A stretch of DNA of 16,260 bases from a virus: UHGV virus genome UHGV-0143875. The stretch is one strand, 5' to 3'. Within the stretch, counting starts at the first letter, position 1. The number at the start of each line of letters is the position of its first letter. Positions 1 through 16,260 of the stretch are shown one piece after another. Below the pieces are notes generated by a model. The model was not told where the DNA came from and did not search any database. It worked only from the letters and a program-made list of their open reading frames with translations. Made by a program: the position numbers and the translations under genes.

Positions 1-205
1 CTTCGGTATACGTTTTACCGAGCATGATGTCTTTTCCGGTGTGTCCGTGACATACGGTCCATACACCAACAATATCTTTGTATGGTATGTAGCTGACACC
101 CTCCAGACCATCGTTACCACTTGGGCCAGTGATTAGCACTGATGCTATAGCAATAGCCCCGCCACCAATAGCAGCTGCAACAGCTTTTCGTAATGATGGA
201 GGCAT
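1..205 (-). CDS. R: SAR endolysin (phage-21 R-type lysozyme), N-terminal portion only; gene continues beyond the window start
   Basis: Reverse-complement of 1-205 translates from ATG (203-205) as [61 protein letters not shown]..., a Gly/Ala-rich signal-anchor-release N-terminus followed by a lysozyme-like sequence. Its start overlaps the holin stop (TAATG). Matches phage 21 R from recall, not computed. Confidence 0.85.
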
Positions 206-420
206 TATTCACCTCTCGCAGCCTTTCTTCTGTCTTCTCTGATTTTGAAGTACAGATTTGTCAGATAGGTGAGAAAGCCCAACACAAGGCTTCCAAGCAC
301 TCCAATCGCAGCCCACTGTGATGGACTGACCTGATCCAACCACTGTAAAAACCAGTATCCCGCACTACCAGCGGATGTTCCGTAAGCAATGCCAGTTGAG
401 ATTTTGTCCATTGATTTCAT
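205..420 (-). CDS. S: Class II holin (pinholin, phage-21 S-type), 71 aa with dual-start motif
   Basis: ORF track 205..420: [71 protein letters not shown]. Two hydrophobic segments and a charged C-terminus; Met1-Lys-Ser-Met4 gives the holin/antiholin dual start; sits immediately upstream of the SAR endolysin. Confidence 0.9.
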
Positions 421-538
421 AGCAACGCCTCCGCCAGTAACGGATTGCGTAGTTCTTATATTGGGAAGGGGAAAAAAGAAGGCCGCAGCATAACTATCAC
501 TGATGAATTCAGAATAGCCAGTGGCTACGGCTCAGTAA

Positions 539-614
539 TGGTGCTGGTTAACGGACTTGAACCGCTACCCATTCGCTTACAAGGCGACTGCTCTACCATT
601 GGAGCTAAACCAGC
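539..614 (-). tRNA. tRNA gene, 76 nt, encoded CCA; predicted anticodon UGU (Thr)
   Basis: Minus-strand sequence GCTGGTT-TA-GCTC-CAATGGTA-GAGC-A-GTCGC-CTTGTAA-GCGAA-TGGGT-AGCGG-TTCAAGT-CCGTT-AACCAGC-A-CCA folds by hand into a cloverleaf: 7-bp acceptor stem, 4-bp D stem, TTCAAGT T-loop, U33 and A37 flanking UGU. The 27-43 pair is a G-A mismatch. Not run through tRNAscan. Confidence 0.7.
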
Positions 615-619
615 ATATT

Positions 620-694
620 TGGAGGGGCAGCGTGGACTCGAACCACGATAAGAAGGTTAACGGCCTTCCGTAATGACCTTTATACGACTGACCC
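620..694 (-). tRNA. tRNA-like element (atypical; possible Asn-GUU-like tRNA or pseudo-tRNA)
   Basis: Minus strand GGGTCAG-TC-...-GAAGG-CCGTTAA-CCTTC-TTAT-CGTGG-TTCGAGT-CCACG-CTGCCCC-T-CCA. Perfect T-arm (GGTTCGAGTCC), perfect 5-bp anticodon stem and encoded CCA, but C at position 33, one acceptor-stem mismatch and a poor D-arm. Lies 5 nt upstream of the other tRNA. Confidence 0.4.
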
Positions 695-740
695 AAATAA
701 AAAAAGCCACCGTTGCAACTTAAGAGTCACTAACGGCAGC
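695..740 (-). terminator. Intrinsic terminator after the late promoter (tR'-like)
   Basis: Minus strand GCUGCCGUU...AACGGUGGC stem (two G-U pairs) followed by UUUUUUUAUUU, about 20 nt downstream of the Q stop and just upstream of the tRNA-like genes. Confidence 0.5.
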
Positions 741-743
741 TTA

Positions 744-780
744 CCTTCTAATTATGGCTAAATGGATAATTGCATGTCAA
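744..780 (-). promoter_or_regulatory. Candidate late promoter pR' (and presumed qut region) overlapping the 3' end of Q
   Basis: Minus strand TTGACA (plus 775-780), 18-nt spacer, CATAAT (plus 751-756). Position at the Q 3' end matches the arrangement in 82/21-type Q modules. Promoter call is by eye only. Confidence 0.45.
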
Positions 781-1276
781 GACTTTTAACAGCAATATGT
801 TTAACTTTCTCAACACGTTTACGCATTTTGAAAGCATTTTGCATTGGTTGGTACAAAACAAATAATGATGCTTTCAGGATGTCGTCAATTTCATTTCTAC
901 AGGTTGCCAGTGAAGGTTTTCTCCATCCCTCGCCACCACGTCCACACATCTTGCGTGGCTTTGCAGTCGCGTGATAGTAGGATGCAATTGCTCGCTTAGA
1001 TGAACCATGAGCGTAGTAGCTGAGGAGGATGCCAAAGGCTTTCTTGTCAATGCACATGACGGAATCAACGACCTGAGAAATCAACATTCCATCATCATCA
1101 TTGCACATTGGCCTTGTCATAATTCTTCCCGGCTCTACGCTCTCCATGAACTTCGCTATTACGCTGCTCATGCGCTTTTCCAGACGACCTGAATAAACCC
1201 ATGCGCCCCACAGTTCAAGCCATCCATTCAGCCAATCGTGCTGTTCTTTGGTGAGGTTTAGTTCTCTTATACCCAT
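758..1276 (-). CDS. Q: Late-gene antitermination protein Q (non-lambda type)
   Basis: 172-aa ORF ([35 protein letters not shown]...MCNDDDGM...) in the Q position between the nin region and the lysis cassette; resembles Q proteins of lambdoid prophages from recall. ATG at 1274-1276 overlaps the NinI stop. Confidence 0.75.
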
Positions 1277-1938
1277 GCGACTTCTCCCTGTACCTGAATC
1301 AATGTGAGGTTTCCGCAGAACACTGCGCCGGTATCGATATACATCTGGTTGGCAAATTTGAGTGGTTTCACTGCTGGCGTATGACCAAAGATGAACGTGT
1401 CCGCGCCTTTGATTTCTTTCACGATCCCGTCTTGTGAGTTGCTGATTCGTTCGCGGTTCCAGATTATCTGCTGATGATCAACTGGCTTTCCGAACTCGTA
1501 TTCATCACAAGGATAATCGGCGTGGCAGATGACATATTTTTTATCTTTGCTCACCAGTTCGATGATTAACGGAAGTTCTTCTGCTTTATGGGCAAGAGCT
1601 TTAGCCAGAATTTCTTTGTCGTAATCGAGATTAAAGAACCAGCCACCGCCATCAAGCAGCCAGTGATTAACGTTTCCACGCTCTGATAAGCCATCAATCA
1701 TCATTTGCTCATGGTTTCCACGTACAGCTCTGAACCAGGGGAATGTGATTAATTCCAGACATTCGACGTTCTCTGTACCGCGATCAACCAAATCGCCCAC
1801 CGAGATAAGCAGGTCTTTTTTGTTGTCGAATCCAATCGTATCCAGTTTGTTCATCAGGTTCGTGTAGCATCCGTGCAGGTCGCCAGCTACCCAAATATTT
1901 CGGTATTTGCTGCCATCAATTCTTTCGTAGATATTCAT
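1267..1938 (-). CDS. ninI: Ser/Thr protein phosphatase (lambda NinI / ORF221 family, calcineurin-like metallophosphatase)
   Basis: 223 aa containing GDLHG, GDLVDRG and GNHE metallophosphatase motifs; near-identical by recall to lambda phosphatase ([43 protein letters not shown]...). Confidence 0.9.
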
Positions 1939-2549
1939 GCAGCCTCACTTCTGCTGTTTCGCAGTTTTTTAAGTTTCTGTTGATACTCCGCCTTGATGGT
2001 CTTGCACTCTTCGACAGTCCAGCGATGGCGGTTATGGTTTGATTCGATTTCCTCTACTGCTTCCTGCCCGATGCGGCTAATCAGTTCGACGCAATACGGA
2101 ACGAGATTTCCGCTTTTGTGCTGGTTGCACACCACGCATTGCTTGTGAATATTGCGTTCATCAAATCGGAGTTGAGGTGCCGCAGCAGTTGTCCGGTAAT
2201 GTCCGGCATCCCACTGAGCAGACGTGAGCGTTCCGCACGAGATACATGGTAAGTCGCGGTCTCTTTCTCTGATGAAGGCGTTTACGGCTTGTTGGGCTTG
2301 TTTAATCCAGTAACTGCGGGGCTTTAAGGCGAGTTTCCGAATCTTAAGTTTATCTTTCTGTTTCTGCTCCTCTCGTCGTCGTTTCTTCTCTGCTGCTTTT
2401 TCCGCTTTTTCGCGTTCTTTACTTCGTCGTTCGAGTGCTATCTTGGTTCCACACTCTGGAGAGCACCACCACTGATTAGCGAATGCAGGGTGAAACCATT
2501 CCCGGCATTCATCGTTTTTACATCGTCTTCGCGCTGGTTTAGCCATCAT
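1935..2549 (-). CDS. ninG: NinG (Rap-like recombination-promoting protein)
   Basis: 204 aa, Cys-rich with a basic coiled segment; matches lambda NinG by recall; ATGA overlap with ninI. Confidence 0.85.
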
Positions 2550-2733
2550 CTTCTTCCTCGTGCATCGAGCTATTCGGATCGCTCATCAGTTCTGCGCAGC
2601 AGTGCTCACACACGTGAACTTCCAGCACATGCAGCTTCTGACCGCAGTTAGCGCACGTTAAAGCTCGCTCGACGCTTTCTTGTTCGTAACTTCGATTTGT
2701 GTCAATCACCTTGTTTTCCTCATGCGGTTCCAT
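2539..2733 (-). CDS. ninF: NinF-like small zinc-ribbon protein
   Basis: Internal ATG at 2731-2733 of the long ORF 2539..3003 gives [64 protein letters not shown]; the C-terminal two thirds match lambda NinF by recall. The upstream part of the 154-aa ORF overlaps the next gene in another frame and is treated as non-coding. Confidence 0.6.
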
Positions 2734-2848
2734 TTGGCCTGTAACAGCCCGTAGACATAATCGAATGTCTTTACCTGGCTTTCTGTGGGGATTGGTTTCT
2801 TGCGGGATTTGGTGCGTTTGGTAGGAGTAAAAATCAGGTTGTCTAACG

Positions 2849-3022
2849 CTATTTGAGTAACGATTCGTCGCTGTCTCGCCATACGTCCTCCTTTTCCTGA
2901 GGTAGTGGTAACACCCCTGTTGGTGTTCTTTCACACCGGAGACACCATCGATTCCAGTAAGGTTGCCCGGGTCGAAAGCGATCGTCTTCCTTTCGCTCTC
3001 CACATCGATAACAGTGCTTCAT
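2849..3022 (-). CDS. 57-aa CxxC...CxxC zinc-ribbon protein (NinD/ORF57-like by size and position)
   Basis: Start moved to Met7 of ORF 2849..3040 ([34 protein letters not shown]...), giving an ATGA start/stop overlap with the upstream methyltransferase gene. Identity with lambda NinD is not verified. Confidence 0.5.
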
Positions 3023-3609
3023 GCGATCACCATTTTGCATGGTTTAATCGCCATGCCGGGAGCCAGTTCAAAATCGGAGTCGCACTGATTGCCCCACATA
3101 TCCCACCCGGTCACTTTGTCGCGGCTAAATAACTCACAGCGCGGCACGTCGCCAAGCAACTTAGCTAACATGTCTCTTACGATCGGTGGTTTTGCACTGT
3201 GCTCCATTCTCGGTGCGGTAAAGTGCTGGCATATTGAAGCGTCCATTCTCTCAGGCAACCGCCCTCGAACAGCAAACAAGCAATCCTCGCTATTTGCCCG
3301 GGTCATATGCCCCATTCCGATCGCACTGTTGCCTTTGTGCTTATTGGTTTTGTGCCAAGTAAAGCCTTTCATAGTCATCAACCTGAATCCCCACGCCTCA
3401 ATTACCTTTAGCGCTTCGGCTGGCTGTGTCGGCACCCACCACATCGCTAACAAGCAAGATTCTGGATCCGCTAAATCCCATACTGGCAGTCGGCAAATGT
3501 CCTGAACATTCATAACATCGTATTTATGTCCAGCACCGCGATTGCCATCGTTGGCTTTGTCGCGATATTGCCAAGGCGGATCTGCGTAAATAAGTCGGTA
3601 TTTGTTCAT
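3019..3609 (-). CDS. DNA N6-adenine methyltransferase, MT-A70/DPPW family (orphan, no restriction partner seen)
   Basis: 196 aa starting [15 protein letters not shown]...; the DPPW motif near the N-terminus is the catalytic signature of phage Dam-like adenine methyltransferases. Occupies the slot between ninB and ninD (the lambda ninC position). ATGA overlap with ninB. Confidence 0.8.
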
Positions 3610-4046
3610 GCAGCTTTATCTCCCCATCTCGCTTTCCACTCCAGAGCCAGTCGCGCTTCGTCTGACCACTTAACGCCACGTTCTGTACCGAATGCCTGTA
3701 TAAGCTCTAATAGCTCCGCAAATTCGCTTACACGCATCCTGCTGGTTGACTGGCCTATTACCACAAAGCCATTCCCGGCAAGGTTAGGAACAACGTCCTG
3801 CTGCTTTAATGCTGCGGTAAACACACACTTCCAGCTTTCTGCATCCAGCCAGCGACCATGCCATTCAACCTGACGAGAGACGTCACCAAGGCAAGCCCAA
3901 AGCTTTCGATTCTGGTCTAAGCTGCGGTTGCGTTCCTGAATGGTTACTACGATTGGTTTGGTTGGGTCTGGAAGGATTTGCTGTACTGCGTGAATAGCGT
4001 TTTGCTGATGTGCTGGAGATCGAATTTCAAAGGTTAGTTTTTTCAT
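3606..4046 (-). CDS. ninB: NinB (Orf family recombination mediator)
   Basis: From ATG at 4044-4046: MKKLTFEIRSPAHQQNAIHAVQQILPDPTKPIVVTIQERNRSLDQNRKLWACLG...; near-identical to lambda NinB/Orf by recall. The ORF-track start 18 nt upstream is probably a non-ATG artefact. Confidence 0.9.
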   Translation of the reverse strand: MKKLTFEIRSPAHQQNAIHAVQQILPDPTKPIVVTIQERNRSLDQNRKLWACLGDVSRQVEWHGRWLDAESWKCVFTAALKQQDVVPNLAGNGFVVIGQSTSRMRVSEFAELLELIQAFGTERGVKWSDEARLALEWKARWGDKAA

Positions 4047-4061
4047 GACTTCCCTCTCCCC

Positions 4062-4094
4062 CAAATAAAAAGGCCTGCGATTACCAGCAGGCCT
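4062..4094 (-). terminator. Intrinsic terminator tR2 (upstream of the nin region)
   Basis: Minus strand AGGCCTGCTGGTAATCGCAGGCCT (8-bp perfect stem) followed by TTTTTATTT, between ren and ninB, exactly where lambda tR2 lies. Confidence 0.8.
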
Positions 4095-4119
4095 GTTATT
4101 AGCTCAGTGATGTAGATGG

Positions 4120-6449: not shown

Positions 6450-7804
<1,355 letters not shown>

Positions 7805-7998: not shown

Positions 7999-8108
7999 AG
8001 CATTCAAAGCAGAAGGCTTTGAGTAGCGCGAAATGCAGCTGCAAGACAGCAACCGTGGAGATAAGCATCACGGCGCGTTACTCAAAGCTAACTGACAGGA
8101 GAATCCAG

Positions 8109-8435
8109 ATGGATGCACAAACATGCCGCCGCGAACGTCGCGCAGAGAAACAGGCTCAATGGAAAACAGCAAACCCCCTGTTGGTTGGGGTAAGCGCAAA
8201 ACCAGTTAACCGCCCTATTCTCTCGCTGAATCGCAAACCGAAATCACGAGTAGAAAGCGCACTGAATCCGATAGACCTTACAGTGCTGGCTGAATACCAC
8301 GAACAGATTGAAAGCAACCTGCAGCGTATTGAGCGCAAGAATCAGCGCACATGGTACAGCAAGCCACGCAGTGAAATGGGTGTGACTTGTGTTGGTCGCC
8401 AGAAAATGAAATTAGGCAGCAAACCACTTATTTGA
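8109..8435 (+). CDS. N: Antitermination protein N
   Basis: From ATG at 8109: MDAQTCRRERRAEKQAQWKTANPLLVGVSAKPVNRPILSLNRKPKSRVESALNPIDLTVLAEYHEQIESNLQRIERKNQRTWYSKP...; arginine-rich motif at the N-terminus; lambda N by recall. The ORF-track upstream extension (8019-8108) is leader. Confidence 0.9.
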   Translation: MDAQTCRRERRAEKQAQWKTANPLLVGVSAKPVNRPILSLNRKPKSRVESALNPIDLTVLAEYHEQIESNLQRIERKNQRTWYSKPRSEMGVTCVGRQKMKLGSKPLI

Positions 8436-8446
8436 GAGGAATTAAT

Positions 8447-8983
8447 ATGTCATCAATCCGCTTAACTACGAGAATGAAAGAGAAAATCGCTCGTAACGCT
8501 TTAATTAAATCTGGGGTTTTCACTGAGCTTGAAGAAGTAACAAAGTTAAAGAACAAGCTTGCACTTGACGCCAGAGTTGTTGCGTTTGGCGGTAAAAAGA
8601 AAACTGAGGAAGTGGATCAGTTATCATCCAAGTTAATGGCTATAAGCGAAGAACTTGAAAAGCTGGGATGTTCATTTTACTCATGCGATGCCCGTTCAAC
8701 TTCAATTTATCTGACTGTATCTGGCAGAAGGGTTGGCTGGTATTCATATGGGAAAGACGGCAACGGCGAAGATATATTGCTCCCTACTCCGACCAAAGAT
8801 AAATGCATGTTTAGCGCAGAACACGAAATAACAAAAAGGTTTGATGAAATCTGCGCATTGCAACAAAAACTTGAAGCCAAGAAAAAGGATATCGAATCAA
8901 ATGTATGGGCTGCTTTGAACTCAGTCACAACAGTTAAGCGACTTATTGAAGTTTGGCCTGAAAGCAAAGAGTTGCTACCATAA
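8447..8983 (+). CDS. Hypothetical protein, 178 aa, in the N-proximal accessory slot (lambda ral/sieB position)
   Basis: ATG at 8447 preceded by GAGAGGA RBS; MSSIRLTTRMKEKIARNALIKSGVFTELEEVTKLKNKLALDARVVAFGGKKKTEEVDQ...; charged, Lys-rich, no obvious transmembrane segment; lower GC than flanks by eye; no resemblance to Ral or SieB as recalled. Confidence 0.6.
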   Translation: MSSIRLTTRMKEKIARNALIKSGVFTELEEVTKLKNKLALDARVVAFGGKKKTEEVDQLSSKLMAISEELEKLGCSFYSCDARSTSIYLTVSGRRVGWYSYGKDGNGEDILLPTPTKDKCMFSAEHEITKRFDEICALQQKLEAKKKDIESNVWAALNSVTTVKRLIEVWPESKELLP

Positions 8984-9204
8984 GAAGCAGATAAAGCAAG
9001 TACAGCACTTCCTGCTTTACGGGTAGAAGATTTGAATAAGATGATTGTACTTCCTTCCGAGGTCGCATAATCGTCCTTTATTTTTGGCATAAACAACAGA
9101 ATAAACACTGCACTGTGTATTCATTCCAACGAGTGAATACACGGAGCAATGTCGCTCGTAACCAAACAGGAGCCGACTTGTTCTGATTATTGGAAATCTT
9201 CTTT

Positions 9205-9230
9205 GCCCTCCAGTGTGAGGGCCTTTTTAT
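9205..9230 (+). terminator. Intrinsic terminator upstream of cIII (tL-type)
   Basis: GCCCTC-CAGTGT-GAGGGC hairpin followed by CTTTTTAT. Confidence 0.6.
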
Positions 9231-9294
9231 ATGCATACCAATAACGCTTCACTCGAGGCGTTTTCGTTATGCAATCAAACAGAAGGAGCATCCT

Positions 9295-9465
9295 ATGCAA
9301 CAGTTCGCTATTGCAGGGGCGGCATCGGTTCGCCCTTTCAACCCGATTTTATCGGTACAGCATTCACGAAAAAATATTTTAACCGGAGCAGACTTTAAAC
9401 AACCAAGAATGAAAAGCTTGCTCGAAAAGCTTTGGGATATTTTGAAACAACAAGGCCGCCCATGA
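9295..9465 (+). CDS. cIII: cIII-like protein (inhibitor of FtsH-mediated cII degradation)
   Basis: 56 aa MQQFAIAGAASVRPFNPILSVQHSRKNILTGADFKQPRMKSLLEKLWDILKQQGRP after RBS AAGGAG; same size, position and N-terminal MQ-x-AIAG motif as lambda cIII, otherwise diverged. Confidence 0.65.
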   Translation: MQQFAIAGAASVRPFNPILSVQHSRKNILTGADFKQPRMKSLLEKLWDILKQQGRP

Positions 9466-9569
9466 GTTTTACAGATAACTGGTCAGACGAAGAATTCATT
9501 CGTCAGATAAACAAAATGCTCAATCAGCACAAAGAACAGGAGAAAGATGATGATTCTGACTCTGAATGA
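9462..9569 (+). CDS. Possible small acidic protein (35 aa), ATGA-coupled to cIII
   Basis: MSFTDNWSDEEFIRQINKMLNQHKEQEKDDDSDSE; start overlaps the cIII stop; too short for the ORF track; coding status uncertain. Confidence 0.3.
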   Translation: MSFTDNWSDEEFIRQINKMLNQHKEQEKDDDSDSE

Positions 9570-9858
9570 TAAGCGTGAAATATCGCAAATTATCGCAACT
9601 TTTACTGATGAAGATTACGAACGAATCAACAGTGAAGTTGATCGCCTCTGCAAACGTTGCGACCCAATAAGCGAAATGCTTCGCTCATATAAACCAGATG
9701 AACACACTAAAGATGCTATCGACTGGCTGGAAGATGATGACTGTGACTATCAGGAAAAAGCCGCTGAATGGTTCTGGGATGCAATAACAGAAAGAGTTAA
9801 GGCTGAATATGCCTTCGCAATATTCAAACGCAGACAAATTTATGGAGAAGCAGCATGA
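9547..9858 (+). CDS. Hypothetical acidic protein, 103 aa, immediately upstream of and coupled to the RecT gene
   Basis: RBS AGGAG 5 nt before ATG; MMILTLNDKREISQIIATFTDEDYERINSEVDRLCKRCDPISEMLRSYKPDEH...; Asp/Glu-rich; stop overlaps the RecT start (ATGA). In the position lambda uses for kil/gam. Confidence 0.6.
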   Translation: MMILTLNDKREISQIIATFTDEDYERINSEVDRLCKRCDPISEMLRSYKPDEHTKDAIDWLEDDDCDYQEKAAEWFWDAITERVKAEYAFAIFKRRQIYGEAA

Positions 9859-10757
9859 GCAATATCGTTGAATTCGTTAAACATCAGGAGCAGTTATTCT
9901 GCGGGGCATTGACTGAACAGACGGTGACATGGGCTAAGGAAAGCCAGTTTGCAATTCAGTATTTCCAGAAAAATGATTACCTGGCTAAAACGGCACTGGC
10001 AAATCCAACCAGCGCACAGAACGCCATCATCAATGTTGCGGCGATCGGCATCACCTTAAACCCGGCTAGCAAACTGGCTTATCTAGTTCCGCGCGACGGC
10101 ATGGTTTGCCTTGATATAAGTTACATGGGATTACTTCACCTTGCACAGTCGACAGGATCAATTAAGTGGGGACAATGCAAACTGGTGTACTCAAACGACA
10201 CCTATGAATCGAATGGCCTTGATTCAGCACCCACTCACAAATACAACGCATTTGGTGAGCGAGGCTCTATTGTTGGTGGTTATTGCACGGTTAAAACAGC
10301 AGATGGTGACTACCTGACTGAAGAAATGAGTCTGACAGAAATTAAAGCCGTGGAAGCAACGAGCAAGGCAAAGAATGGACCGTGGATGACATTCTGGGAA
10401 GAGATGGCGCGTAAAACCATAGTTAAACGCGCCAGCAAATACTGGCCTAAAGCCCAGCGACTGGATAATGCCATTCACCTGCTTAACGAAGATGAAAGTA
10501 TGCATCAGGAACCAGTTATGCCGCATAAATCAGAGGAAGATATCCGCGAAGATGAACGGAAACGCCAGCAGGAAATAACGGATAAAGCACAACTTCTTTG
10601 TGATGAAATGGCTCAGGCTGAAAACATGGATGATTTGAAGAGATATTTTGCAGAAGCATATCGCCTGACATCTGGAATGAAATTGCAGCAGAACGTACAA
10701 GCCATTTACATAGAATGCAAAGCGAAACTGGAGGTTGCCAGTGAGCAAACTGTATGA
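9855..10757 (+). CDS. recT: RecT-family single-strand annealing recombinase
   Basis: 300 aa; contains the ...NGPWMTFWEEMARKTIVKRASKYWP... block characteristic of the RecT family (compare Rac RecT GPWVTHWEEMAKKT by recall); occupies the lambda bet position. Confidence 0.8.
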   Translation: MSNIVEFVKHQEQLFCGALTEQTVTWAKESQFAIQYFQKNDYLAKTALANPTSAQNAIINVAAIGITLNPASKLAYLVPRDGMVCLDISYMGLLHLAQSTGSIKWGQCKLVYSNDTYESNGLDSAPTHKYNAFGERGSIVGGYCTVKTADGDYLTEEMSLTEIKAVEATSKAKNGPWMTFWEEMARKTIVKRASKYWPKAQRLDNAIHLLNEDESMHQEPVMPHKSEEDIREDERKRQQEITDKAQLLCDEMAQAENMDDLKRYFAEAYRLTSGMKLQQNVQAIYIECKAKLEVASEQTV

Positions 10758-11223
10758 AATAGCCAATGAATACGCAAAGTTGATGGATTCGGATTTAGAG
10801 CCAGAGATGATTGCTGACACAATAGAAGGCATGGAAGGAGAATTTACCGATAAAATAGAGCAACTTCTTGCCATTATTAAAAATGAATCTGGTTATGCTG
10901 AACGCCTCAAGGACGAGGCAAAGTCACTGAATGAACGAGCAGCAGTAATTCAAAATAAGATTGATAGCATTATGGCATATATAGCGTCATCGCTTGAAAT
11001 GGTTGGCAAGAAAAAGATTCGAGCAGGTATTCACCAGGTAACAATCCGCAAACCGTCAGAAACTGTAGAAATCATCGACTCAAGCGCCCTTCCTCAAGAA
11101 TACGTTGAGTTTGAAACGACAATTAAAGCCGACAAGTTGGCAATAAAACACCAACTAAAAGCAGGAATAAATATCCCCGGCGCTCAACTCAAAGTTGGGA
11201 AACCTTCACTTCTTATCAAATAA
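10741..11223 (+). CDS. Hypothetical protein (~160 aa) downstream partner of RecT, probable GTG start
   Basis: GGAGG RBS 7 nt upstream of GTG at 10741; overlaps the RecT 3' end; predicted helical and charged: SKLYEIANEYAKLMDSDLEPEMIADTIEGMEGEFTDKIEQLLAIIKNESGYAERLKDEAKSLNERAAV.... Function unknown. Confidence 0.55.
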   Translation: MSKLYEIANEYAKLMDSDLEPEMIADTIEGMEGEFTDKIEQLLAIIKNESGYAERLKDEAKSLNERAAVIQNKIDSIMAYIASSLEMVGKKKIRAGIHQVTIRKPSETVEIIDSSALPQEYVEFETTIKADKLAIKHQLKAGINIPGAQLKVGKPSLLIK

Positions 11224-11234
11224 CGGTATCGCCT

Positions 11235-11549
11235 ATGAAAAAGACTCCATGGGAGAAATGGGAAGTCAATTTCTTGCGCGAAGTAGTGGCGACAATGCCA
11301 GTTGAAGTTATCGCTGAAAAACTGGAAAGGACTGAAAAAGCAGTAATGGCGAAAGCAACAAGGATTGGCGCTGACATTGTTAGCCGACTTCGTGGAAGAC
11401 GATGGACAAGAGCCGAAGTATCACTTTTCGGTAAGTTCTCCGCAGAAGAAATAGCAATTGCAACCTGCCGCTTAATTTATTCGGTAAGAGCTATGCGATA
11501 CAAGCTAAAAAAACTCGATGAAAAAAGAGCAGGCATACAAATAAATTAA
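11235..11549 (+). CDS. Hypothetical small basic protein, 104 aa, with two W/E/F-containing repeats (possible DNA-binding)
   Basis: MKKTPWEKWEVNFLREVVATMPVEVIAEKLERTEKAV...RRWTRAEVSLFGKFSAEEIAIATCR...; internal repeat noted by eye; fold unverified. Confidence 0.5.
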   Translation: MKKTPWEKWEVNFLREVVATMPVEVIAEKLERTEKAVMAKATRIGADIVSRLRGRRWTRAEVSLFGKFSAEEIAIATCRLIYSVRAMRYKLKKLDEKRAGIQIN

Positions 11550-11565
11550 CATGGAGTAATTAACA

Positions 11566-11847
11566 ATGAAGCTAAACATCGACCTCGGTAAATACGTTAT
11601 TACTGGAACAAAACACGACCTGATTCTTAATGAAAGAGGAATTATCAAAGAAGGTGAGAATGCAGGGAAAGAAACACTAAGCCGTATCGGTTATTACAGC
11701 AAGTTTGAGCATCTGGTCAAAGAGTTATGCAACCGTGAAATCCTGTTATCTCAGGCGCAGACGCTACAGGATATTCAGCAGCATATCGAAACTTTAGGTA
11801 TGTCACTTAGCATGGCTATTGACCAGTTCGTGGAGAGTAAATCATGA
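11566..11847 (+). CDS. Hypothetical protein, 93 aa
   Basis: ORF track; same strand, AT-rich, tightly spaced after the previous gene. Confidence 0.5.
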
Positions 11848-11978
11848 GAGGACTTGCATACAATCCCGGCATTCTTCCAGCAGAAATGATTATTCGCCAA
11901 CGCGTAAAGCCAATGCCATCGAGAGAGGAATTGCTTAAGAGAAATTCTTTTCCATCAGTGAATCAAACAAATATCTGA
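11844..11978 (+). CDS. Possible small protein (44 aa), ATGA-coupled to the preceding gene
   Basis: [44 protein letters not shown]; start overlaps the upstream stop; below the ORF-track size cutoff. Confidence 0.3.
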
Positions 11979-12006
11979 ATACGATGTGGCGCAAAGGAGG
12001 CAACCA

Positions 12007-12567
12007 GTGAGTGTAACGGTTGAAAAGATTGATGTGTTGTCATTCGTTATAACCGGTGCAGAGAGACTAGATCCGGTTCGAGTGATGATTGAAAACTACG
12101 AACCTGGAAAGGGAAGAATCACCATCACCTGCTACGGAAAAGCGTGGACTGCGGCTTGGTTTGCTATGGGCGGTGATGATGTGCAGACGTTCATTAAGCG
12201 AGTCAGCAACGATTATCTAATCGACAATTTCGACCCTCAACTGCTAAGCACGGTCGACGATGACAACGATGCAAATCTGCTTTTCGTGAAGTCAGAAATC
12301 ATAAAGTTACGAAGAGAGAGAGAAATAGACGTCGTACTGGCTCGCGAAATGTGGGACGAGGCGGAAAACGCCGATGACGTAAAAGAAAGCTGCTGCTGTT
12401 TCGGCGTCGGTAACAAACTACTGAATCTCTTTGGTGATGATCCGTGGTATGCCAACTGGCCAACGATACCAAACCCGAAATACCAGTATCTGGAACGCGT
12501 ACTTAATGCAGTGAGAGACGGTCTTAAGCAAATAGATGCAGGAGAGCAAAGCGATGAAAAACCGTAA
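12007..12567 (+). CDS. Hypothetical protein (~186 aa), probable GTG start
   Basis: AAGGAGG RBS at 11994-12000, GTG at 12007; ...VTVEKIDVLSFVITGAERLDPVRVMIENYEPGKGRITITCYGKAWTAAWFAMGGDD...; acidic central region; first gene of a tightly coupled five-gene block. Confidence 0.55.
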   Translation: MSVTVEKIDVLSFVITGAERLDPVRVMIENYEPGKGRITITCYGKAWTAAWFAMGGDDVQTFIKRVSNDYLIDNFDPQLLSTVDDDNDANLLFVKSEIIKLRREREIDVVLAREMWDEAENADDVKESCCCFGVGNKLLNLFGDDPWYANWPTIPNPKYQYLERVLNAVRDGLKQIDAGEQSDEKP

Positions 12568-12730
12568 GGCAAAACGACTTTTTTTACAGCGACCTGTGCG
12601 TGTGGTGGAGCTGGTTATTAGCAACCATAAGATAGCGGTACTCCATCCATTTGGTCAGGTGGCTTTTGCCGCAAAGCGTAAGCCTACTGCGTCACAGAAC
12701 AGGCGGAAGAAAGGGTACGCTGTAAGATGA
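12554..12730 (+). CDS. Small basic protein (58 aa), paralog 1 of a tandem pair
   Basis: ATG at 12554 (internal Met of ORF 12536..12730): MKNRKAKRLFLQRPVRVVELVISNHKIAVLHPFGQVAFAAKRKPTASQNRRKKGYAVR; Lys/Arg-rich. Confidence 0.5.
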   Translation: MKNRKAKRLFLQRPVRVVELVISNHKIAVLHPFGQVAFAAKRKPTASQNRRKKGYAVR

Positions 12731-12918
12731 AAAACCGTAAAGCAAAGATGCTTATTTCCCGTGTATACAGACGTTGCTATCCCAGCCAATGGTTGAGGGT
12801 TAGCAATCGCCGTGTGGTGTTGTTTTCATTTTCTGGAATTGCCAGAGAGGGAGTCAAAGATAAGCGTAGCGCGGCGCAAAACCGCTGGAAAAACCACTTG
12901 TGCACTAAAGGAGCGTGA
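12727..12918 (+). CDS. Small basic protein (63 aa), paralog 2 of a tandem pair
   Basis: MKNRKAKMLISRVYRRCYPSQWLRVSNRRVVLFSFSGIAREGVKDKRSAAQNRWKNHLCTKGA; ATGA-coupled to paralog 1; shares the MKNRKAK N-terminus and an S/A-QNR-R/W-K C-terminal block. Confidence 0.5.
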   Translation: MKNRKAKMLISRVYRRCYPSQWLRVSNRRVVLFSFSGIAREGVKDKRSAAQNRWKNHLCTKGA

Positions 12919-12919
12919 T

Positions 12920-13435
12920 ATGGCGTTAACACACCGCGAACTCTGTCAGATTGCGTACAAGTTCCTTAAGCGCAACGGGTTCAAGGTTTGTTTTCATGAC
13001 CGCTTTATAGCTGTAACCAGTACCGGAGAACAGCCAGATGCTATGGGATTCAGAAATTCAGCATCATGCCTGATAGAGGCGAAGTGTTCTCGTGCTGACT
13101 TGTTGGCAGATAGAAAAAAGCGTTTCCGTAAAAATCCGTCTCTTGGAATGGGCGACTGGCGATTCTTTATTAGTGAGCCGGGAATTATTTCAATTGAGGA
13201 TTTACCTCCCGGCTGGGGATTACTTCACGTTGTTAACGGAAGAGTACGGAAAGTACATGGATGGCCCAAGGGGAATTGCTGTTGGGGTAACCCTGAAGAT
13301 AAACCTTTTATTGGGAATAAGCAGGTTGAATGCGATTACATGTTATCTGCATTAAGGCGCATGGAGTTGAGAGGGCACCTTAATGAAATATATGACGGTG
13401 TAATTGTTAATAAGAAAGAAGGAAACGCGGCATGA
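12920..13435 (+). CDS. Hypothetical protein, 171 aa, with a PD-(D/E)xK-like motif (possible nuclease fold)
   Basis: ATG at 12920 after AAGGAG RBS: MALTHRELCQIAYKFLKRNGFKVCFHDRFIAVTSTGEQPDAMGFRNSASCLIEAKCSRADLL...; the D-x(n)-E-A-K arrangement resembles restriction-endonuclease-fold catalytic motifs. Inference only. Confidence 0.5.
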   Translation: MALTHRELCQIAYKFLKRNGFKVCFHDRFIAVTSTGEQPDAMGFRNSASCLIEAKCSRADLLADRKKRFRKNPSLGMGDWRFFISEPGIISIEDLPPGWGLLHVVNGRVRKVHGWPKGNCCWGNPEDKPFIGNKQVECDYMLSALRRMELRGHLNEIYDGVIVNKKEGNAA

Positions 13436-14364
13436 TCACTATTACCAAAGAGTTCACCAAAGAGCAGTTGATTGAGCAGGCTAAGAAGAATATTGAGGTT
13501 CTTCGCGTTGCGGTGGAAAGAGTCCCAGGCGCTTATGATGCGGCGGTTATTCATCTCAAGCTGGCTGAAATTACGCTGGCATCGCTGGAAGCAGAGCCTG
13601 TTCTGTATCAGTCCTGCACACGCCCCACCTGGAATAGCGGAGTTCCGTGGACGGAATGGAAAGAACGTAGTCGTGAGGGCTACGAAGACGATTTGCGCTT
13701 TACAGACACGCCTGACCATGCCGGTTGGATAAACAAATGTCGAAAACTATATACCACTCCGCCAGCACCGATAGCGTTAGAGGCCATTGAAAACGCAATT
13801 GAATATATCCGCAGTATCGCTTTTCACATCGATGAAGACGATTACCACGGCAAGCATATTGCGTATTTCATGCGACAAGCACTGGTCTGGCTGGAAGGGC
13901 ATTCATGCAGCAACGACAGACAGGGTAAAGCCGAGAATCAACCAGTACGCGGCAACCAGACTGCCGAATCCAATCGCGGTAATGAGTGGACCGGCAATCC
14001 TGATATTGATAACGCCATCATCATGCTCGATCGCATAGATACGCTGGAAAGTTGCGATGATGACCGTATTGAGGCGGTTAAGGCTGTTTTGCGTAGACTG
14101 GCTGGCAACTATCCGGTAACTCCGGATGGTTGGATAAGCTGTAGTGAGCGAATGCCAGAAATGGGAGAGCGACAATGCTATGTGTTAGCAGCTGACTTTA
14201 AAAACAACTACCCACCAAACATCCCCAACACTCAGGTCGGCGTATATGGCGACTGGTTTAATGATGGCAATCCCACTTGGGATGACGGTGATGGCGAAGA
14301 CCTGTATCTCAAAGAGGTAACCCACTGGATGCCGCTACCGGAACCGCCACAGGAGGTGAAATGA
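13432..14364 (+). CDS. Hypothetical phage protein, 310 aa, with a C-terminal region resembling the DUF551 prophage domain
   Basis: ATGA-coupled to the upstream gene; C-terminus ...QCYVLAADFKNNYPPNIPNTQVGVYGDWFNDGNPTWDDGDGEDLYLKEVTHWMPLPEPPQEVK resembles DUF551-type tails by recall; N-terminal two thirds unassigned. Confidence 0.55.
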   Translation: MITITKEFTKEQLIEQAKKNIEVLRVAVERVPGAYDAAVIHLKLAEITLASLEAEPVLYQSCTRPTWNSGVPWTEWKERSREGYEDDLRFTDTPDHAGWINKCRKLYTTPPAPIALEAIENAIEYIRSIAFHIDEDDYHGKHIAYFMRQALVWLEGHSCSNDRQGKAENQPVRGNQTAESNRGNEWTGNPDIDNAIIMLDRIDTLESCDDDRIEAVKAVLRRLAGNYPVTPDGWISCSERMPEMGERQCYVLAADFKNNYPPNIPNTQVGVYGDWFNDGNPTWDDGDGEDLYLKEVTHWMPLPEPPQEVK

Positions 14365-14425
14365 TGCTTGGCCTGAAGTATTTTATGTAATTGGTATTGC
14401 TATATTTTTATCTGGGGATAAACGA

Positions 14426-14668
14426 ATGTTCTCTCTGATTCAACGTGGTCAGATATACACCGATAGCGCTGGCTATCCAGTAAAAATCATTCGTAGTACT
14501 GATCACTCAGTGTTCTTCAAGAGGATGGATGGCTATCCTGGAAGGGTGTGCATCAGAAAATTCAATAATTTATTCGAACACATTGATCACAGAGAATATC
14601 ACCAGATCCTGGCTGAAACAGAACAGGAGAACCATCTGAAAAAATTACGTGCCATGCAAAGGAGATAA
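14426..14668 (+). CDS. Hypothetical protein, 80 aa
   Basis: ORF track; MFSLIQRGQIYTDSAGYPVKIIRSTDHSVFFKRMDGYPGRVCIRKFNNLFEHIDHREYHQILAETEQENHLKKLRAMQRR; same strand as the pL operon. Confidence 0.45.
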   Translation: MFSLIQRGQIYTDSAGYPVKIIRSTDHSVFFKRMDGYPGRVCIRKFNNLFEHIDHREYHQILAETEQENHLKKLRAMQRR

Positions 14669-14748
14669 ACCGGTAAAGGTGTTCGCGATAAAGGTGAATA
14701 TCGGCAATGAATAACAATCCTCGAACTCGCGGGGATTTCTTTTATCTG

Positions 14749-14993: not shown

Positions 14994-15212
14994 ATGTACT
15001 TGACACTTCAGGAGTGGAACGCACGCCAGCGACGCCCAAGAAGCCTTGAAACAGTTCGTCGATGGGTACGCGAGTGCAGGATATTCCCTCCTCCGGTTAA
15101 GGATGGAAGAGAGTATCTGTTCCACGAATCAGCGGTAAAGGTTGACTTAAATCGACCAGTAACAGGTAGCCTTTTGAAGAGGATCAGAAATGGGAAGAAG
15201 GCGAAGTCATGA
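14994..15212 (+). CDS. xis: Excisionase Xis
   Basis: 72 aa MYLTLQEWNARQRRPRSLETVRRWVRECRIFPPPVKDGREYLFHESAVKVDLNRPVTGSLLKRIRNGKKAKS; lambda Xis by recall; 3' end overlaps int. Confidence 0.95.
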   Translation: MYLTLQEWNARQRRPRSLETVRRWVRECRIFPPPVKDGREYLFHESAVKVDLNRPVTGSLLKRIRNGKKAKS

Positions 15213-16260
15213 GCGCCGGGATTTACCCCCTAATCTTTATATAAGAAACAATGGATATTACTGCTACAGGGACCCAAGGACGGGTAAAGAGTTTGGATTA
15301 GGCCGAGACAGGAGGATAGCAATCACTGAAGCTATACAGGCCAACATTGAGTTATTTTCAGGACACAAACACAAGCCTCTGACAGCGAGAATCAACAGTG
15401 ATAATTCTGTTACGTTACATTCATGGCTTGATCGCTACGAAAAAATCCTCGCCAACAGAGGAATCAAGCAGAAGACACTCATAAATTACATGAGCAAAAT
15501 TAAAGCAATAAGGAGGAGTCTGCCTGATGCTCCACTTGAAGACATCACCACAAAAGAAATTGCAGCAATGCTCAATGGATACATAGACGAGGGCAAGGCG
15601 GCGTCAGCCAAGTTAATCAGATCAACACTGAGCGATGCATTCCGAGAGGCAATAGCTGAAGGCCATATAACAACAAACCCGGTCGCTGCCACTCGCGCAG
15701 CAAAATCAGAGGTAAGGAGATCAAGACTTACGGCTGACGAATACCTGAAAATTTATCAAGCAGCAGAATCATCACCATGTTGGCTCAGACTTGCAATGGA
15801 ACTGGCTGTTGTTACCGGGCAGCGAGTTGGTGATTTATGCGAAATGAAGTGGTCTGATATCGTAGATGGATATCTTTATGTCGAGCAAAGCAAAACAGGC
15901 GTAAAAATTGCCATCCCTACAACATTGCATGTTGATGCTCTCGGGATATCAATGAAGGAAACACTTGGTAAATGCAAAGAGATTCTTGGCGGAGAAACCA
16001 TAATTGCATCTACTCGTCGTGAACCGCTTTCATCCGGCACAGTATCAAGGTATTTTATGCGCGCACGAAAAGCATCAGGTCTTTCCTTCGAAGGGGATCC
16101 GCCTACCTTTCACGAGTTGCGCAGTTTGTCTGCAAGACTCTATGAGAAGCAGATAAGCGATAAGTTTGCTCAACATCTTCTCGGGCATAAGTCGGACACC
16201 ATGGCATCACAATATCGTGATGACAGAGGCAGGGAGTGGGACAAAATTGAAATCAAATAA
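15190..16260 (+). CDS. int: Tyrosine integrase Int (lambda type); stop codon is the last triplet of the window
   Basis: 356 aa MGRRRSHERRDLPPNLYIRNNGYYCYRDPRTGKEFGLGRDRRIAITEAIQANIELFSGHKHKPLTARINSDNSVTLHSWLDRYEK...HELRSLSARLYEKQISDKFAQHLLGHKSDTMASQYRDDRGREWDKIEIK; C-terminal R...H-x-x-R...Y catalytic signature; lambda Int by recall. Confidence 0.95.
   Translation: MGRRRSHERRDLPPNLYIRNNGYYCYRDPRTGKEFGLGRDRRIAITEAIQANIELFSGHKHKPLTARINSDNSVTLHSWLDRYEKILANRGIKQKTLINYMSKIKAIRRSLPDAPLEDITTKEIAAMLNGYIDEGKAASAKLIRSTLSDAFREAIAEGHITTNPVAATRAAKSEVRRSRLTADEYLKIYQAAESSPCWLRLAMELAVVTGQRVGDLCEMKWSDIVDGYLYVEQSKTGVKIAIPTTLHVDALGISMKETLGKCKEILGGETIIASTRREPLSSGTVSRYFMRARKASGLSFEGDPPTFHELRSLSARLYEKQISDKFAQHLLGHKSDTMASQYRDDRGREWDKIEIK

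Follow-up and report, generated by a model that had tools for sequence, protein, structure and literature searches.

A predicted PD-(D/E)xK nuclease-fold protein related to the MmcB-like family in the leftward early operon of a lambda/434-type phage

Gene structure and putative catalytic motif

The open reading frame (ORF) at 12920–13435 on the + strand of virus genome UHGV-0143875 was analyzed within a window of 16,260 nucleotides (the whole stretch of DNA under study, numbered from its first letter). Its product, a protein of 171 residues, almost certainly has the restriction-endonuclease (PD-(D/E)xK) fold, and its family is most closely related to the MmcB-like proteins among known nuclease families. 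The ORF proposed in a sequence-only reading of this stretch was confirmed as complete, with an ATG at 12920, 171 codons and a TGA stop at 13433–13435. An in-frame GTG at 12812 (207 aa) was rejected as the start because homologues begin with M-[AS]-L-T-H and the sequence upstream already holds a gene in another frame. The TGA of the preceding small ORF (12916–12918) sits between the ribosome-binding site and the ATG, suggesting coupled translation with that ORF, and the ATG of the following DUF551 gene overlaps the stop codon (ATGA at 13432–13435); the gene thus appears to be translationally coupled to its neighbors. Coordinates of the gene, its motifs and the surrounding genes are given in Table 1.

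Table 1. Coordinates of the gene, its motifs and the other genes of the leftward early operon
Feature	Position	Strand	Remarks
Coding sequence of the predicted PD-(D/E)xK-fold protein, 171 aa; putative MmcB-like sister family	12920..13435	+	PHROG 631/9263
Ribosome-binding site AAGGAG	12908..12913	+	6 nt 5' of ATG; sequence reading
D27 codon, acidic residue just past strand 1	12998..13000	+	position 27 D or E in 141/143 representatives
Predicted catalytic core codons: P39-D40 (13034-13039), E53-A-K55 (13076-13084), S57-R58-x-D60-x-x-x-D64	13034..13111	+	conservation, alignments
C-terminal helix segment, conserved E137, R146-R147	13328..13360	+	conservation; helix 134-150 in model
N-like	8019-8435	+	leftward early operon
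PHROG 1965	8387-8983	+	leftward early operon
cIII	9190-9465	+	leftward early operon
PHROG 3486	9547-9858	+	leftward early operon
RecT	9855-10757	+	PF03837, E 1.3e-32
Gp157 / Mu Gam-like	10735-11223	+	leftward early operon
D5-like regulator	11235-11549	+	leftward early operon
DUF5405	11566-11847	+	leftward early operon
PHROG 3451, 193 aa	11986-12567	+	no Pfam match
PHROG 1380, tandem paralogous small genes, 58 and 63 aa	12554-12730, 12727-12918	+	E 6.5e-23, 1.2e-32
DUF551 ('EaA'-type)	13432..14364	+	Pfam PF04448, E 1.7e-20
DUF4222	14426-14668	+	leftward early operon
xis, int	14994-15212, 15190-16260	+	leftward early operon

The sequence-only reading had been drawn to the peptide GEQPDAMGFRNSASCLIEAKCSRAD (residues 36–60, nt 13025–13099), in which it saw an Asp followed about 14 residues later by E-A-K. 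The residues are as described and the spacing is not: D40 (13037–13039), preceded by P39, is followed 13 residues on by E53-A54-K55 (13076–13084). The extended motif S57-R58-x-D60-x-x-x-D64 is also found in MmcB-like proteins. Chance occurrence was assessed by shuffling the protein 5000 times and by examining the 33 ORFs of at least 100 aa in the window. The loose motif D-x(10-20)-[DE]-x-K appeared in 45% of shuffles and in 13 of the 33 ORFs; a stricter form, [PVILMFA]D with two hydrophobic residues before [DE]-x-K, appeared in 2.7% of shuffles and, among the ORFs, in this one only. Taken alone, the bare D...E-x-K motif is not beyond chance and is weak evidence, so the earlier caution that a short motif read by eye could mislead was justified; the motif is meaningful because of its conservation and the fold in which it lies.

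Conservation across the family

When a family profile built from 33 close relatives was searched against 1.84 billion representatives, 2,463 clusters (50% identity) were detected at E ≤ 1e-10, a number that rose to at least 3,284 with the cut-off relaxed to 1e-3. Residue retention was counted over 152 cluster representatives (50%-identity clusters); those sampled are 34–55% identical to the phage protein. The predicted catalytic residues are kept in about 99% of these divergent sequences (D40, 147/148; E53 and K55, 150/151 each), as are E37 (147/148), D60 (151/151), D64 (150/152), K67 (151/152), R70 (151/151) and R81 (151/152); in the C-terminal helix segment E137 is retained in 132/135, R146 in 121/134 and R147 in 121/133. 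The pattern reads as that of a maintained active site and a basic DNA-binding surface, the C-terminal segment being probably a DNA-contacting or structural element. A further metal ligand may be D27, whose counterpart in PF06319 sequences is an E of the 'EEF' motif.

Some proteins of the PD-(D/E)xK fold are non-catalytic, and a DNA-binding protein or regulator that has kept the fold was therefore considered. Retention of D40, E53, K55 and further acidic residues at about 99%, at 34–55% identity, makes this highly improbable, and on the conservation pattern the protein is probably catalytically active.

Domain fusions were seen among the relatives. A metagenomic relative (P0170, 428 aa; L003 6001–7287) carries a TniB-like AAA+ ATPase region N-terminal to the nuclease domain (Pfam TniB, E 3.2e-6), and several others have unrelated C-terminal extensions of 100–270 aa; no consistent theme was found among these fusions.

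Predicted structure and relation to known nucleases

The structure was modeled with AlphaFold2 from a 33-sequence alignment (predicted local distance difference test score, 88.1; predicted template modeling score, 0.82). The model contains, in order, a helix (5–18), three strands (23–26, 41–45 and 48–54), a helix (58–66) and a strand (80–85), and continues with a hairpin (100–105/108–113) and a long helix (134–150); the helix, three-strand, helix, strand core, whose absence would have spoken against a nuclease, is thus present. D40 stands directly before the strand at 41–45, and E53 and K55 lie at the end of the strand at 48–54, an arrangement that agrees with the superfamily pattern, in which a conserved D opens strand 2 and strand 3 carries (D/E)-x-K. 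A Foldseek search of the model against the Protein Data Bank (PDB), as the sequence-only reading had suggested, returned 3dnx (E 1.2e-5) as its sole match below 1e-3. Against BFVD, members of the family came first, and behind them, at E 1e-7 to 1e-3, stood phage proteins under the names 'MmcB family DNA repair protein' and 'MmcB-like'. Together with the conservation of D40, E53 and K55, these results support the restriction-endonuclease fold that had been proposed.

3dnx is the structure given for DUF1052/PF06319/COG5321, a mostly alphaproteobacterial family, in a census of PD-(D/E)XK proteins (PMC3424549). Identity between the phage protein and this MmcB-like family (PF06319, formerly DUF1052, COG5321; 3dnx is SPO1766, and the family includes Caulobacter MmcB) is about 24%. 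The protein alone gave only noise in a phmmer search of the PDB; the broad family profile, searched against 177,635 PDB sequences, found 3dnx at E 1.6e-4, with Hjc next at E 0.36–0.95. A 43-residue piece of 3dnx used as query retrieved nine database proteins, all with PF06319; these are fragments of 51–76 aa, so that the profile-profile comparison was limited to the N-terminal core, where hhalign gave 96.3% probability and E 1.8e-9 over 77 columns. The core aligns on 'D...IECKSSRADFqaD' of 3dnx, and the two families have in common the signature D...[IV]-E-x-K-S-[SR]-x-D-F-x-x-D followed by a D-[RW]-R-[FY]-F strand.

Even at E ≤ 1 the phage protein matched no Pfam or NCBIfam model, and it therefore falls below the curated PF06319 and NCBIfam MmcB thresholds while being homologous to family members and to 3dnx. 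When 43 divergent relatives were scanned singly against Pfam, sub-threshold matches to PF06319 were found in 12 (best E 2.9e-4), to Hjc in 24 (best E 1.3e-4) and, weakly, to UPF0102 in two. As a family homologous to the MmcB-like proteins and outside their model, it appears to be an unmodeled sister family. It differs from them in being phage-borne in Enterobacterales and Vibrio, and in motifs of its own: H5, G-E37-x-P-D, K66-K67-x-F-R70, G76-M-G78, W99-G-L, E137 and R146-R147.

The sequence-only reading had likened the motif to that of Holliday-junction resolvases or VRR-NUC-like proteins; the closest family is instead the MmcB-like one. VRR-NUC and YraN/UPF0102 are small single-domain nucleases of the same superfamily, and no VRR-NUC profile match or close structural match was obtained. 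Archaeal Hjc/Hje (PF01870; 1hh1, 1ob8) has the same minimal PD-(D/E)xK core, and in the family profile P39, D40, E53 and K55 align on P41, D42, E55 and K57 of Hjc. This alignment, the Hjc matches among the divergent relatives and the position of the gene 2 kb downstream of recT would suit an Hjc-type resolvase of Holliday junctions or other branched DNA that acts on RecT recombination intermediates of the phage. The protein itself, however, scores below the Pfam threshold for Hjc and has a low structural score to it, and the phage already has NinG/Rap, so that such a resolvase is an improbable identity for the gene.

Genomic context

The window belongs to a lambda/434-type temperate phage, read on the minus strand of lambda. 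Phage 434 covers 51% of it at 97% identity, and the immunity region (6771–7403) and the lysis/nin end (1–4100) match 434 rather than lambda. The stretch at 9318–14711 has no nucleotide match to lambda and stands in for the lambda kil-gam-bet-exo-ea segment; the window is thus a 434/lambda-type mosaic with a foreign accessory segment in the pL operon. A tblastn search for homologues of the protein in lambda, 434 and HK140 returned nothing at E below 0.5, which bears out the statement, in the sequence-only reading, that lambda has no such gene at this position.

The gene occupies a place equivalent to the lambda exo-xis (ea) region, between the recombination genes and xis/int and within early pL transcription, and its Ea22-like and DUF551/'EaA' neighbors are likewise those of that region; lambda's own exo-xis region differs in having no homologue of it. 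The words 'nuclease', 'endonuclease' and 'resolvase' are all absent from a paper on modeling of exo-xis (PMC8614690). A consensus scan, in itself weak evidence, found no promoter-like site on the + strand before the gene, and terminator-like hairpins occur only after 14716; both fit expression within the pL transcript.

A gap of 350 bp upstream of the gene was considered as a non-coding RNA and rejected, as it holds the two PHROG 1380 genes; an Rfam scan of 11800–13600 gave no match. These two genes are diverged and very basic, both start MKNRKAK, carry a 32-nt direct repeat at their starts and are linked to each other and to the nuclease-fold gene by ATGA/TGAnATG overlaps. PHROG 9263 represents a fused call of the second of them with the nuclease-fold gene. 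Further upstream, residues 66–122 of the PHROG 3451 ORF weakly matched a PADLOC model for type II restriction enzymes (E 0.0032); the match could be noise, or it could mark another nuclease-like protein of the accessory region.

Distribution and neighbors

At the DNA level the gene is 97–99% identical in 137 phage records, including Stx1- and Stx2-converting phages (Stx, Shiga toxin), Shigella phages 75/02 and POCJ13, and P1/P7, where it is named upf89.0; most of the Stx-converting phages sampled carry it. Among 5426 complete E. coli genomes it was found in 931 (17%), and of its 1300 places 250 are on plasmids. Protein-level relatives occur in 643 of 50,697 phage records, among them temperate phages of Vibrio and Klebsiella. 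Phages of about 158 kb that infect Salmonella, Klebsiella and Dickeya (for example Salmonella phages PS5 and SKML-39 and Dickeya phage phiDP10.3) encode shorter relatives that cover residues 4–113 only, that is, the nuclease core without the C-terminal helix. These phages are apparently virulent and of Ackermannviridae type, so the family is not confined to temperate phages.

For neighbor analysis, the ORFs of 80 IMG/VR loci were predicted and grouped into clusters; a homologue was called in 69 of the loci. Around these lie genes usual in the early region of temperate phages (integrase, CI-like repressor, replication O, DnaB, NinG, NinB, phosphatase). DUF551 is the commonest neighbor (22/69 loci, mostly directly downstream), and coiled-coil proteins without a Pfam match, taken to be Ea22-like, are close neighbors in about 17 loci each; no other close neighbors recur. 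As no neighbor exceeds 22/69 loci there is no obligatory partner, and across the 69 loci no methylase, immunity gene, sensor, ATPase or recombinase was consistently linked. Judged by this context, the protein looks like a stand-alone enzyme.

The cassette of Ea22-like gene, nuclease-fold gene and DUF551 is intact in P7 (89016–90826) and Shigella phage 75/02, with the ATGA overlap kept. It is 97–99% nucleotide-identical among lambdoid phages, short-tailed Stx phages and P1/P7 plasmid prophages (E. coli 2012C-4502 was also compared), which points to recent exchange between unrelated phages.

The pL operon of the window carries RecT and a Gp157/Mu Gam-like 'end protection' protein, a module also present in HK140, mEpX1 and Kapi1, and no YqaJ, RecE or Exo family was recognized in the operon beside it. 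With lambda exo-bet-gam replaced in this way, the protein, as the only clear nuclease-fold gene product of the operon, could be the missing exonuclease partner of RecT. This idea was rejected because HK140 has a RecT/Gam-like module that is 92% identical and no homologue of the gene between N and int. RecT, moreover, is not a recurrent neighbor in the 69 loci, no RecT lies near the gene in P1/P7 or in short-tailed Stx phages, and the fold is nearest to endonucleases rather than to toroidal exonucleases of the lambda Exo/RecE type; a role as RecT partner is the least probable of the alternatives.

A nuclease directed at the host or at competitors (defense, superinfection exclusion or host takeover), as found in moron-rich regions, would suit a gene that lies in a mosaic accessory segment missing from lambda, travels in a cassette exchanged between lambdoid phages and P1/P7, is widespread in E. 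coli and has homologues in virulent phages of Ackermannviridae size. A scan of the protein against PADLOC-DB 2.0, though, matched no family at E ≤ 1, and the methylase, immunity or sensor partner that might be expected does not recur. Since no promoter of its own was predicted by the weak scan, expression in a repressed lysogen is doubtful as well, and a host-directed function is judged unlikely.

Proposed function

The interpretation that is favored, with some reserve, is that the protein is a stand-alone, probably active metal-dependent PD-(D/E)xK endonuclease of the MmcB/Hjc type, made early and cutting damaged or branched DNA. Mg2+ would be bound by D27, D40 and E53, K55 would place the attacking water, and the DNA would be held by the conserved basic residues K66, K67, R70, R81, R146 and R147. 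On the model of MmcB and Hjc, the enzyme would cut DNA that is damaged or branched, without specificity for sequence, and would serve as an accessory nuclease of repair or recombination; that specific role is put forward tentatively, as less likely than the biochemical activity. As part of the pL operon, placed between the RecT/Gam-like module and DUF551-DUF4222-xis-int, the gene is presumably expressed early after infection or induction, and the operon would be de-repressed on SOS induction of the prophage.

Mitomycin C is a classical inducer of prophages. In Caulobacter, mmcB is SOS-regulated, encodes a PD-(D/E)XK endonuclease and is required if cells are to resist mitomycin C and cisplatin; MmcB has been hypothesized to be a partner of translesion polymerases in crosslink repair (PMC9578287; bioRxiv 10.1101/2022.06.10.495655). 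The literature yielded no functional work on the present family or on MmcB-like proteins of phages, and nothing on the identifiers of the gene. A speculative extension, to which only a small probability is given, is that the family is a phage branch of the MmcB type that processes crosslinked or damaged phage DNA at SOS induction, or else supplies the nuclease that RecT/Gam-like modules lack. In the former case the protein, made from pL once the repressor is cleaved, would raise phage yield and, in Stx phages, toxin output after DNA-damaging induction. Such an effect on yield, if real, would be relevant to the biology of Shiga-toxin phages.

Annotation

The assignment offers a testable activity for a protein that is called 'hypothetical protein' in nearly every record examined, and whose PHROG matches (9263 and 631) are annotated as of unknown function. 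Its value lies in the annotation of Stx, lambdoid and P1-type phages and not in any new mechanism, the protein being a member, in effect an unmodeled sister family, of a well-known enzyme superfamily; a family of this size merits its own Pfam or NCBIfam model. Where other names have been given, they vary. One UniRef relative is named 'YraN family protein'. In the RefSeq record of P7 (NC_050152.1) upf89.0 is mislabeled 'minor tail protein', and P1 records MH422554, MH445380 and MH445381 mislabel the gene as 'EaA protein', a name proper to its DUF551 neighbor. In the E. coli record NZ_CP027440.1 it is called a 'frameshifted' pseudogene.
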